DNA of 64,000 nt. Origin: Eledone cirrhosa. Lineage: Eukaryota. Shown here piece by piece: positions 38,562 to 62,944 of this stretch. The notes under the pieces were generated by a model. The model searched no databases and was not told the origin of the DNA. It was given only the letters and a program-made list of their open reading frames with translations. The stretch covers positions 258,540,001 to 258,604,000 of the forward strand of contig OZ024742.1 of assembly GCA_964016885.1 (NCBI GenBank), read 5' to 3'. Made by a program: the position numbers and the translations under genes. The first letter of the stretch is position 1; every line of letters begins with the position of its first letter.

Positions 38562-39375
38562 ATGAAAGACGTAAAATAAGAAAATTATAAAAATTTACTT
38601 ACTTACTAAAATTTCACTCCAACTAATTAGGGAGATCTGTTCTCAGCTAAGTTCCCAGGCAATGCGTGGACACAGGGAACTTATACAAACATAATTTTCT
38701 TATTTTACGTCTTTCATATAATTGTTCTGCATCCCTTTGCATTGAACCACAAAGTTACTAAAACAAAACCTATATATTTGCTAGCATAGGTAGGCATCTG
38801 TATATATATGTTGGTAGATATACTAATTCTGTATAATTATCTCCAGATTATTTTGTTGAGCAAAAATTTACCAAAACTACTGCTATGGTTCATAGTAATA
38901 GCCAGGCTACTGTCTTATTAGCACCCCCACTCTTCACTGATTGACATCGATGTCACGTGATTGACTCTTTTGAATTCGCCACCGACTAAGTAGGCAGTGA
39001 TTTTTTCAAGGTTCTCGAATTTAGTCCTCGCTTGCTTTTTTCCATCCACTGAATTATTTTTGTATAAGTTCCCTGTGTCCACGTATTGCCTGGGAACTTA
39101 GCTGACAACAGATCTCCCTGATGACGAAAGGATATTTCTCCATGTTGTTCCAATCGGAAACCATTGTTTATTCCCTTTCAGAAACTAATTAGTTGGAGTG
39201 AAATTTTAGTAAATAAGTAAACTTTTATAATTTTATAATTTTCTTATTTTACGTCTTTCATATAATTGTTCTGCATCCCCTTGCATTGAACCACAAAGTT
39301 ACTAAGACAAAACCTATATATTTGCTAGCATAGGTATGCATCTGTATATATATGTTGGTAGATATACTAATTCTT
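38562..39375 (+). mobile_element. Retrozyme-like element, 544-bp unit x ~1.25, with inverted 5' segment
   Basis: tattttacgt at 38701 and 39245; 38562-38689 inverted; homologous to 60316-61230; no ORF. Confidence 0.82.
39114..39198 (+). ncRNA. Type I hammerhead with extended stem II
   Basis: CTCC-CTGATGA-cGAAAGG..CCTTTCa-GAAA-CTAATTAG-TT-GGAG. Confidence 0.75.
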
Positions 39376-41563
39376 TATATATATATATATATTCATATAT
39401 AGGTACATATATATAAACACACGTAGATACATATATTTATATATACATAAGTCTGTGTCTGTGTGTGTGTGTGTGTGTGTATGTGTGTGTGTCCTGGCGT
39501 TTCTGAGTCTCTCTGTCTCTGTGTGGCTGTGCGTGTATGTGTGTTTCTGTGAGTGTATGTGAGTTTGTTTGTCTGAATGCGTATGTATCCGTGTGTTTGT
39601 GTGTGTGTGTGTGTGTGTGTGTGTGTATGTGTATGTGTGCGTGTGTGTTTATGTAACATAACATAGTGGGTCAACTAAGAGATTGACTGAATACTTAATA
39701 TACCTGTTAAAATAAGTAATGAGGTGGCTATGAGCGATTAAATGAAAGTGAACTCCCAGTACATCGCAGTTTAATGGCCAATATATGTATCAAAGTGTTG
39801 ACAACTGTGAATATGTTAACAACATTCTGACAACACAAACTTTTACGGGATTGTTGTGTCGAGCGAAGATATGTTAGGGCAGGAATGATATTGATCTCCA
39901 TCGCTTTTTATGATGGGTATTCCAGTTCAATCCAATGGAGCAACATGCTCCTAAATTACGCATTCGAGTGGCGGAGCATTTCATAGACACTTGTAGACTT
40001 AAGGGAATTCTCAGAGAGATGTAGTATTGTACAATTTTTGTCAAGACTTTTCCTTTTAGGACTGTAGTCCATCAGACGGGCTTCCATACAGTTTTCTTCC
40101 ATCTAGTTTCACTCATAATGGCTCGACTAGTACTATGGTTAAGTTGCTATGAAGTTGGATGGGGACTTAATGATTGTGAAACACACTTCTTAACCAATTG
40201 GACATCTAACATCCACAAGTAAATTTTAGAGACTTTGAAAAGCGTGAAAAGAATAATAGTGAAATAAATTAATTACAGCACGAATAGGGATTTATTGTTA
40301 TTTGCAGCTTTAACAACTGAAACTGGATATCATTAAAGGAAATGTAAACAGCAGGAAGTAAAGGGATGACATAGAATGACACAACATTATATCAATTGTA
40401 ACCCATGTGTTAAGAGATGCTGATTACAATGGGCATTAGTTTACAGGTTAAACACAATAATTACATTTGTTTGGATTCTCAAGGACAGAGAAGTTATTGT
40501 CTGTGGTTTATATGTATATCATACATGAATATTTACGTTAGACAATATATTTGAAGAAACTAGAAATGTAACCAAGCAAATAACACAAGATATCATAAAG
40601 CATGAAGAAAAATATATCTTTCTTAACGATTATAATTTGCGTGATTCCACCAAACAAATTAATAATGTTTTATTTTTTCTTCAAAATACACAAACATGTC
40701 AGTACACGTCAGAGATTTCAAAAACAGAAATAAAATTATTTTGATTAAGATCAACAGTAATGTGTACATCATGCATACATACCTATGACAAATATCAATT
40801 GTGTAAACATTTTAACCGTTCCATTCCAAACAACATGTGATAATTTATGTTAGCCCTAGACAATGCAATTTTATATTTCCCATGAAAATATCGTTCATTT
40901 TATTTGTATTTCTATCAACTATAGAATTTTTTTTTCTGTGGCTAGATAACACATATAATGTACATAGCAAGGTTCGTATTAACGAAATACCAACTATTGA
41001 ACTTATCACTGGTTGCCCTTACACAGAGAAACAATCATATTAAATTTCTTTATATATTCAGTTTCATATAAGGTCGTATGAAGATCAGATTTGAAGCTGT
41101 TATTCAAATATAAATTACTCTCGTATTTCAAGAATTACACACATACAATATACATTTTTTTGTTACTGACATAAGCAGTATACTCAACTTCAAATATTTC
41201 CAACAACATATAAGGCCGGATCTATTTCATATAATGTAAATGGCAAAAGACTAATGTAGCTTAAAAAGGCATTTAATATGCGATGAAACGTCCTTGAGTA
41301 CATCAGCAAAGATTTGTTTTCAGTTCCCTTATTCTCATACATAAACATTCCTATAGTGAATTGGATAAATGTAATATTCTACGCAGGCACAAATATAATT
41401 TGAATGCAAGCAACTACAGTTTCTTGTATAGACTAGGTTTTATATATATATATATATATATATATATATATATATATATATATATATATATATATACTGG
41501 TAGAACACTGGAAGGTAATATCCGTAGTGGTAGAGTACACACTCCATGGGACGAGTTAGGTAG

Positions 41564-41721
41564 AAGTGGTTACACAACAGTTAGAGCACCATACCGAGAA
41601 CAATTGTTTCACCTTAACGGATCCTCAGCTCGTAAATTTTACGTAAAATTTACGAGCTGAGGATCCGCTAAGGTGAAACAATCCTTCTCGGTATGGTGAA
41701 CTGACTGTTGTATAACCACTT
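41564..41721. repeat. 158-bp near-perfect palindrome with a hammerhead in each arm
   Basis: Centre at 41642/41643. Confidence 0.9.
41595..41632 (-). ncRNA. Minimal type I hammerhead (38 nt)
   Basis: Reverse complement CGAG-CTGAGGA-T CC gttaa GG T-GAAA-CAATTG-TT-CTCG; the mirror at 41653-41690(+) has CAATCC. Confidence 0.75.
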
Positions 41722-60447: not shown

Positions 60448-60888
60448 ACTATTCTCATCTAAGTAACCAGGCAAAGCGTGGACACTGGAAACTTATTAAA
60501 AAATAATTCAGTGGATAGAAAATAGCAAAGCGTGGCCTGAATTCCTAGCCATTGAGAAAATCGCTGCCTCTACGTCAGTGGCAAATTCAAAAAGAATCAA
60601 TCACGTGACATCGAGGTCAATCAGTGGAAAGTGGTTGTTAATAAGACAGCGGCCTGCCTGCTACCATAGCAGCAGTCGTGGCCAATATTGCTCGACAAAT
60701 AATTTGGAGAGAATTATAAAGAATTAATATCTAGTAACCTGTATATACATACAGATGCATATCTATGCTAGCAAATATATTGGTTTTGTCTTAGTAACTT
60801 TGTGGTTCAATGCATGGGGTTGCAGAACAATAATACGAGAGACGTAAAATAAGAAAATTATAAAATTAACTTACTTACTAAAATATCA

Positions 60889-60968
60889 CTTCCAACTAAT
60901 TAGTTTCTGGAATGGAGTAAATATATTTTCCGAAGAAAACATGGAGAAACATTCCGTCGTCAGGGAAG
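60889..60968 (-). ncRNA. Type I hammerhead, second tandem copy
   Basis: As 60368-60447. Confidence 0.78.
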
Positions 60969-62944
60969 ACTATTCTCATCTAAGTAACCAGGCAAAGCGT
61001 GGACACTGGAAACTTATTAAAAAATATTTCAGTGGATAGAAAATAGCAAAGCGTGGATTGAATTCCTAGCCATTGAGAAAATCACTGCCTCTACGTCGGT
61101 GGCAAATTCAAAAAGAATCAATCACGTGACATCGAGGTCAATCAGTGGAAAGTGGTTTGCTAATAAGACAGCGGCCAGCCTGCTACCATAGCAGCAGTCG
61201 CGGCCAATATTGCTCGACAAATAATTTGGAGATATATATATGTATTTACACACATATATATACATATATATAAATATATATATATACATGTGTATACATA
61301 TACATGCGCATACATATATATACATATATATATATATATATATATATATATATATATATATATATATATATATATATGTGTGTGTGTGTGTGTGTGTGTG
61401 TGTGTGTGTGTGTGTGTGAGTGCGTGAGTGGACTTGTGAAATACCAAACCCAGCATGGATTCATTGAAGTGTGTCAGGCGGAGGGACAGTTGATGGCCAG
61501 TGTAACACCAACTATTGGCCACAATTTATGATGACGTAAAAAACAACAGCCAACAGCAGGACAAGCGAGGAAGATGTTTTTTGACGCTAACACCCCATTG
61601 AGAACATTTGATCCGAAATTATTACAAGTGTTCGATGAACCTGCAAGTCCAGAATCACACAGATCCATACAATGATCGTGTCTCGAGCTGTCTGCCGGCT
61701 AAACAATTGTAACACTCAATAAATTGAGTCCAGATGCATCACTGATTTTTCGTTTTACATTATATCACACTCTGCTCTGTAAGAACATAGAGTGCTCAAC
61801 CGGCATACCGTCCCGGAAGCATCATAGCTACCATCAGACACACATACACACACACACATACACACACACACACACACACACACATACACACACACACACA
61901 CACACACACACATATATATATATATATATATAGTAACAAAGAATATAGAGCATCAAGTTCAAAAGTTAATACATTATTTATTTGATCTATACGTGTTTCA
62001 TTATCTATATGTATTATGTAGTGAAAGTCAGGATCGATTATATATATATAACATATTAGAAAGTGTTTAATTACCGAACGATGTTTGTCCGTAACCGCAT
62101 GTTGTAGCTGCAAACTATGACCAATGTTTTTTCTAAGATTATGGAAGGTTGAAATTACCAGAATAATTTTGCAGTAATTCTCTTAATAGTTGTTCTACCG
62201 ACAGTCCTATTCTGATGTTAATATAATATATGCCTGTCATTAGTGCAACTATATTAACAGTTACTGAAATTATAATCACATTTATCCTCAATATCTATTT
62301 TTTTTAGCTTTAATGTTATGAAATATATGGACGTAAATAATGGCTAAAATGATCTAGTATTTATCAGCGTTAATTTTATTAGGTTGCTTATATGTAACAT
62401 CTTCTTTTACTAGGTACATGTAGCCACCCACTACTCTTATTGCTTCATGTAGCCAAACCATTATTTACAGACACCCACGTCAATACATGCATACATCATG
62501 CACACACTTATACCCACACACACGCACACACACACATACACACGCGCATGCGCACACACCGCGCGCACACACACACACACACACAGGCACACACACATAC
62601 GCGCAGGCACACATACACACACATATATATATATATATATATATATATATATATATATATATATATATATACATTTATTTCGAATTCTTTTACTACTGGT
62701 GGTGGGGTTAGAAGGGGAGTAAGAAATTATATCAGAAAAGCCGCTGTTGCTGATGCAGTGTTGTAGTAGGATGTCACCCTATCAAAGTTGGCTTTCTTAG
62801 AAAAATGTTAGAAGTCCTATCTGATAAAAAGTAGCTATTAGGTATTTTCTAAAATGCTCCAGGTTGACGTGGTATAAACATGAGGGAAATCTGACTCACA
62901 CTGTATCTAAAATGTATAATCCTACCAAATCGCATACGTCAGCA

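Follow-up and report, generated by a model that had tools for sequence, protein, structure and literature searches.

In the window analysed here, a stretch of 64,000 nucleotides (nt) of the Eledone cirrhosa genome (assembly GCA_964016885.1, contig OZ024742.1, positions 258,540,001 to 258,604,000 of the forward strand), two diverged loci are members of an abundant, non-autonomous repeat family that has no open reading frame (ORF). The reading preferred here, to which a probability of roughly 60% is given, is that of an ORF-less tandem element of about 530 nt with a type I hammerhead ribozyme (HHR), copied into (TA)n microsatellites by the reverse transcriptase (RT)/GIY-YIG protein that a Penelope-like element (PLE) would supply in trans, likely from a self-cleaved monomer or circle. 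That the element is non-autonomous and PLE-mobilised can be held with high confidence. The genome (3.0 Gb, 1796 contigs) contains 5441+4634 = 10,075 matches to the exact HHR pattern CTGAYGACN{42,62}AGAAACTAATTAGTT, with 0+0 matches in the reversed control, and 10,835 matches to a relaxed pattern. The natural cut-to-cut monomers measure 508-571 nt (n=32), and the subfamilies, only 70-85% identical, form a ladder-like tree (54 of 114 rows left after thinning).

The probable PLE-mediated spread of the family is indicated by the anatomy of its insertions. The 3' ends lie on (TA)n, exact to the base, at two fixed sites: A is about 58 nt beyond the predicted cut, and B lies another 115 nt or so downstream. 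The head-to-head insertions pair an A end with a B end in 43 of 44 cases, in 25 of 25 among 79 positionally unbiased loci, and in 82 of 83 non-redundant cases overall; the B+B pairs of an early count (40 AB, 5 BB, 1 AA) proved to be false internal calls and disappeared under a stricter rule. The 5' ends have no fixed position and show no excess at the cut (5/223 versus 3.3 expected, p=0.24), from which it follows that the RT passes the cut junction, and a pile-up of 5' ends at the cut that was apparent from short matches was gone at base resolution. Fixed 3' ends, an optional tail on one arm, 5' truncation and an inverted 5' copy are all features of PLE-type insertion. The pairing of A with B matches both the tail present at one end of inverted PLE copies, known qualitatively (PMC8557442, PMC3846280), and the behaviour described for a purified PLE protein, which in vitro cuts and extends both strands, with RT starting at two internal RNA sites (PMC11167929). 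A dispersed satellite spread at the DNA level, with an incidental ribozyme-like motif, is highly improbable: some loci did gain a unit through DNA duplication, but DNA recombination would not be expected to give base-exact 3' ends at two sites, truncated 5' ends, insertion into (TA)n, the A+B pairing or the RNA covariation, and two full units or more are present in only 5 of 217 arms.

The features of the two window loci are as follows, with positions counted from the first letter of the window.

38559 to 38696, minus strand: inverted (head-to-head) arm of locus 1 (L001), HHR core deleted, ending at 3' site A on (TA)n
38691 to 39379, plus strand: direct arm of locus 1, 1.27 units with a period of 544 nt, ending at 3' site B on (TA)n
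38952 to 38964, plus strand: E-box-like motif GTCACGTGATTGA, conserved among subfamilies, with an only putative promoter role
39104 to 39108, plus strand: 5' strand of the predicted pseudoknot of locus 1, mutated to GACAA, most copies having GAGAA
39114 to 39198, plus strand: type I hammerhead of locus 1, with stem I CTCC/GGAG, CUGAUGA, and C.A at 10.1/11.1
39242 to 39379, plus strand: site A motif and the tail of about 115 nt between 3' sites A and B, with two hairpins
60311 to 61232, minus strand: locus 2 (L061), 1.76 units with a period of 521 nt and two intact HHRs, ending at site A on (TA)n
60889 to 60977, minus strand: upstream HHR of locus 2, pseudoknot strands intact (GAGAA 60977-60973, TTCTC 60948-60944), predicted cut after 60894
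60368 to 60456, minus strand: downstream HHR of locus 2, predicted cut after 60373
60373 to 60893, minus strand: predicted cut-to-cut monomer RNA of 521 nt
61118 to 61130 (first copy) and 60597 to 60609 (second copy), minus strand: E-box-like motif of locus 2

A preliminary description of this DNA had recognised two diverged, partially tandem loci without ORFs, and this picture is borne out: the period anchors lie at 38694 and 39238 (544 nt) in locus 1 and at 60368 and 60889 (521 nt) in locus 2, the loci are about 80% identical, and the dimer of locus 2 has no ORF, its longest stop-free stretch being of 75 codons and its longest ATG-started frame of 32. The inverted arm of locus 1 had been overlooked; with it, the locus is an example of a head-to-head insertion (inverted arm A, direct arm B), and, the HHR core of this arm being deleted, locus 1 has one intact HHR and only locus 2 a dimer. 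The unit length of 544 nt given for locus 1 is correct for that locus but includes a private 9-nt duplication, the relatives having 534-543 nt, mostly 534-537. The HHR cores start at 39118 (+), 60963 (-) and 60442 (-), and in locus 1 the ribozyme has a 6-bp stem II with an internal loop (TTCTC, 39136-39140) and an apical hairpin, a palindromic stem III, and a predicted cut after 39194. The sequence CTAATTAG-TT and the C.A mismatch are present in the window HHRs exactly as described, and so are the differences in stem II between the loci, a stem that covaries strongly throughout the family; the stem I sequences CTCC/GGAG and CTTCC/GGAAG were also read correctly, but they differ by one inserted pair and not by substitution. 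As to the motif containing gacatcga, only gtcacgtgattga is common to both loci, because locus 2 has gacCtcga. When 12 subfamily representatives are scored for conservation, GTCACGTGATTGA comes 24th of 509 windows, and the partner with which it is predicted to pair is variable; TCACGTGAC is also found in two Neptune-type pseudo-long terminal repeats (pLTRs) and is absent from three sister units. A promoter function of the GTCACGTGA motif is plausible.

It was also considered, as the preliminary description had itself envisaged, that an autonomous PLE may exist of which the unit is simply the pLTR, or the debris of a solo pLTR. The retrozymes of Xenopus are indeed homologous to pLTRs (Li et al. 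2026, 10.64898/2026.07.22.740005), two loci (L095 and L237) adjoin PLE sequence without a (TA)n run, and the comparison covered 92 PLE loci, which are a sample of the PLE families of the genome and not a census. However, the junctions of L095 and L237 are located at the other element's own 3' end, and the Hydra- and Neptune-type families there have different pLTRs. In the loci examined, the unit was not found to be a pLTR: there was no recurrent fusion of a family copy to an RT ORF, and no RT and GIY-YIG ORF between two copies of the unit. The copies stand unit on unit in tandems of up to 3 or more, and the same-strand HHR neighbours within 10 kb are spaced by 534-543 nt in 10 of 10 cases (full list of 87 matches, by eye) and by 471-571 nt in 16 of 17, with one at 1085 (among 100 matches listed, by eye), with no pairs 2-6 kb apart among the family HHR matches listed. 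The unit profile found only inserted copies in the sampled PLE loci, where other pLTRs are present, at 6/92, with the junctions inspected at all but L193 and L195, and in the extended loci displayed (3/12) (TA)n runs divide the family copies from the ORFs. That the unit is only a pLTR or its debris is therefore improbable.

The claim that the element borrows a PLE RT is supported as far as the insertion signatures are concerned (two fixed 3' ends and A+B pairing), but no autonomous partner was identified among the PLE loci sampled. The genome is rich in Hydra- and Neptune-type PLEs that have (TA)n ends, and the Hydra-like families (with DKT and CxCx5C motifs) have HHRs 20-60 nt before the first end, in some cases with long stems II, and in one family a tail of 155 nt. 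By geometry, the partner would perhaps best be sought in the Hydra clade, and next among the Neptune-type elements. Two possible markers of the partner were rejected: a short-stem-II form of the HHR, with 45 matches, of which the 30 inspected are for the greater part copies with deletions or members of diverged subfamilies, none of them serving as the pLTR of an ORF; and a pyrimidine-rich motif before site A, not diagnostic because it is present in Neptune-type ends also.

The ribozyme itself has the core CUGANGA / GAAA / UH of the canonical type I hammerhead and lacks the canonical G10.1-C11.1 pair, being C.A at that position in 86 of 92 distinct copies. The adjacent pair is G-C in 89 of the 92, and the third position of stem II, counting C.A as the first, is Watson-Crick in all 92, with all four pair types. 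In 34 copies, hand-picked from 186 for diversity and an intact upstream flank, 95.3% of the stem cells are paired, a value reached by 0/500 shuffles, the slid controls giving at most 47.7%. The numbering of the mismatch in the preliminary description is backed by those sister HHR families that have G-C at 10.1/11.1, others having U.U or C.U. To describe the C.A instead as a canonical G-C flanked by a bulged C and an additional A (after PMC4209133) is geometrically equivalent, and the sister families favour the first numbering. The stem II region is 49-56 nt long, and stem III is a 10-nt palindrome that is predicted to be able to dimerise. The core, stems and predicted pseudoknot are kept among subfamilies that have diverged to the extent given above, which argues for selection on the active fold, and the family HHR probably cleaves, judging from its sequence. 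The folding of the 521-nt monomer is better than that of shuffled sequences, with z -4.1 for the linear form and, against 40 shuffles, z -5.1 for the circle. Beyond the core, GGAGTG / GGAAGTG, the 3' strand of stem I, is matched at a distance by a complementary segment (CACTCC / CACTTTC / CATTCC) that changes with it from subfamily to subfamily, and in the predicted fold of the window monomer the pairing of 60893-60887 with 60634-60627 (-) sequesters this strand; in a circle, such a complement would be an off-switch. The GTAAGT after the HHR, tried as a splice donor, is accounted for by pairing in distal stem I.

The internal loop of stem II is conserved, and its TTCTC is complementary to the GAGAA upstream of stem I, so that a pseudoknot joining the stem I side to this loop is predicted. 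In 93 of 118 copies, GAGAA or GAAAA precedes stem I; of these, counted without selection, 82 have GAGAA/TTCTC, 4 GAAAA/TTTTC, 2 are discordant and 5 are other. Other long-stem-II HHR families, encountered in flanking DNA, have complementary strands of different sequence, among them GAGTTT/AAACTC, GAGCT/AGCTC, GAGAAG/CTTCTC and ATGGAAA/TTTCCAT, and a pseudoknot of 5-7 bp is predicted in 8 of 11 HHR families, the focal one included (sum 56 versus 41.2 permuted, p=1e-4); these families were found by patterns without the pseudoknot, the windows were set after the focal family had been seen, and two of the families are close relatives. Pseudoknots are reported in about 40% of hammerheads (PMC3088659), hence only the architecture of this one is new.

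The template from which the copies are made was addressed by a comparison of variants in 30 head-to-head loci, with 4792 columns of three or more copies, the A/T-run spacer being masked and one locus with arms more than 8% different being dropped. In 126 columns the variant was confined to a single copy and in 45 it was common to all copies; a further 14 columns were arm-specific, 7 mixed, 6 round-specific and 4 complex. The round-specific variants are far fewer than those in all rounds, which suggests that units are often regenerated from a monomer, and the pattern as a whole leans that way. Arm-specific variants were tried as proof of a rolling circle and rejected, the initial 23 being mostly in A/T runs and the 14 left after masking being explained by DNA duplication.

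A number of observations weigh against the preferred reading and against a circle in particular. Two poorly referenced loci contribute 21 of the 45 columns with variants in all copies; round-specific columns (6) and mixed columns (7) are more numerous than the 1-2 roughly estimated by chance, so that multimers of non-identical units must have served as templates in some cases; and a later duplication of the DNA would explain the 14 arm-specific columns just as well. Both the C.A at 10.1/11.1 and the GUU triplet are off the usual hammerhead consensus and could slow cleavage, and only one of the three window copies has the active HHR fold as its predicted structure of lowest energy. The GAAAA/TTTTC copies form one clade, and the compensatory change of the pseudoknot within the family is therefore one event only, although there are several such events across families. 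No autonomous PLE with the same tail or other cis sequence was found among the PLE loci sampled. In published systems, the PAc PLE can do without HHR cleavage in vitro, its main substrate being RNA that has not been cleaved (PMC11167929), while only 1/9 of the predicted Xenopus retrozyme dimers is reported to cleave in vitro (Li et al. 2026).

These observations are in part shared by a rival in which the element, still a non-autonomous passenger of PLEs, is copied from a linear multimeric transcript that has not been cleaved; its HHR would act with the help of protein or be accessory, and a circle would be dispensable. The PAc HHR is described as cutting only with protein (PMC11167929), uncleaved RNA would explain as well as circles why the 5' ends do not peak at the cut, round-specific variants are common to both arms in L243, L270, L271, L281 and L288, mixed patterns are found in L268 and L298, and extra units can come from DNA duplication, as in L277 and L268. 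However, the round-specific variants amount to 6/4792 columns versus 45 in all rounds, and the ribozyme core, stems and pseudoknot are kept despite the divergence of the subfamilies. Such a multimer-based passenger is a serious but less likely alternative, and the chances that the circle is the main template are about even.

The putatively self-cleaving tandem element preferred here could be propagated as follows. A tandem copy would be transcribed, possibly from the E-box-like motif. With dimerisation of stem III and the predicted pseudoknot assisting, the HHR would cut the transcript after GUU, the unit-length RNA being then circularised. The PLE protein would bind the tail and nick both (TA)n strands, with RT starting at site A on one strand and at site B on the other. 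The two complementary DNAs would pass the cut junction, stop at random points and join head to head, or, alternatively, one arm alone would be fixed.

The family has the genomic features of animal non-LTR (non-long terminal repeat) retrozymes: tandem units each with a type I HHR (in locus 2 and the 32 natural monomers), no coding capacity, and autonomous PLEs in the same genome. Close parallels are found in the metazoan non-LTR retrozymes (Cervera & de la Pena 2020, PMC7229834; Li et al. 2026), which are likewise tandem ORF-less type I HHR units of low GC content in thousands of copies, co-occurring with autonomous PLEs. The published animal families of 51-972 bp, regarded as non-autonomous PLE derivatives (Li et al. 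2026, 10.64898/2026.07.22.740005), include the present size in their range, and the earlier statement that the unit is larger than the known metazoan retrozymes does not hold. The RNAs verified by northern analysis in those works are of 170-400 nt, and the present family is larger; it differs further in the 49-56-nt stem II region, the C.A at 10.1/11.1, the predicted internal-loop pseudoknot, and the prevalence of copies of less than 2 units, often head to head. The term RNA replicon is too strong, as RNA-to-RNA copying has no support.

The endonuclease-positive PLEs (Hydra, Neptune, Penelope/Poseidon; PMC8557442, PMC3846280, PMC11167929) resemble the family in partial tandems, 5' truncation, the inverted 5' copy, the one-end tail, (TA)n targets and an HHR upstream of the 3' end. 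In contrast, the family is without an RT or GIY-YIG ORF and without a sequence link to the autonomous families sampled, and its tail is of about 115 nt versus the 30-40 nt given there, the local Hydra-like families having longer ones as well. The Chlamys PLEs such as MRC1 (PMC8557442) are also non-autonomous and form pLTRs and head-to-tail multimers, but, as described, they have the 3' sequence of an autonomous family and most are without canonical HHRs, whereas here the HHR is prominent and the partner unmatched. With the pseudoknotted hammerheads (Perreault 2011, PMC3088659) and the hepatitis delta virus-like type III HHRs (PMC7936874) the family has in common a Watson-Crick pseudoknot, here a predicted one, between stem I and stem II, and with the latter a long helix interrupted by an internal loop and capped by an apical hairpin; it is distinguished by its type I topology, the location of that helix on stem II, the non-canonical 10.1/11.1 and the 10-nt palindromic stem III.

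The mobilisation of animal retrozymes by PLEs is a published hypothesis, based on co-occurrence and pLTR homology. The class and the size are thus already known, and what is added is the A+B rule and the core-mismatched HHR with its predicted pseudoknot; no report of such a family was found in the literature, a search that did not cover repeat libraries and supplements, so that the family may already be catalogued. The evidence of two start sites, paired in nearly every non-redundant insertion, is at the base level and comes from an element coding no protein, in which the minimal cis region for tests with PLE proteins is of about 190 nt. The HHR variant is invisible to Rfam (0 matches at the gathering score in the window, and no hammerhead model at E values up to 10 in locus 2) and yet present in more than 10,000 copies, and its natural compensatory variants make the pseudoknot and the core mismatch directly testable. 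A metagenome pattern scan for relatives gave 0 matches.

More speculatively, and rather doubtfully, the family may belong to a superfamily of circular RNA parasites of PLEs, of about 460-570 nt, marked by a so far undescribed class of type I hammerhead in which the internal-loop pseudoknot licenses the loss of G10.1-C11.1, and in which a dimeric PLE protein loads two circles and primes both strands from two sites. If true, the two-circle priming would explain the tails, inversions and partial tandems of PLEs by one mechanism.

The sister long-stem-II HHR families in the genome include L342/L348-L377 (period 525), L336-L338 (514), L152:6700-7230 (459), L370, L274, L377 and L060:2634. The three with measured periods are ORF-less tandems, several have the tail hairpin GTTCT..AGAACCAC in common, two ends are likewise found in the L342 family, some 110 nt from each other, and one sister-family pattern gave 484 matches; the unit profile had no significant match to three sister units.

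Among the neighbours in the window, Hydra-clade-like PLE ORFs missed by Pfam are located at 57240-58619 (-) and 23914-25524 (+), and two more PLE insertions (RT then GIY-YIG), with inverted terminal copies, at 47000-48990 (-) and 43860-46140. Nine more type I HHR motifs, at 6236, 20497, 30036, 30371, 30888, 41628, 52606, 55572 and 59762, represent no fewer than five other families, and several have U.U as the lowest pair of stem II. Neptune-/Hydra-type families with a variant HHR-like core (UUGAAAA..GCAA; UUGAGAA..GAAA) are found at 60060-60240 of the window and in L163, L151 and L172, one of them adjoining locus 2 tail to tail over a common (TA)n. Finally, two tandem copies similar to long interspersed nuclear elements (endonuclease, RT, zf-RVT) occupy 9091-18297 (-).

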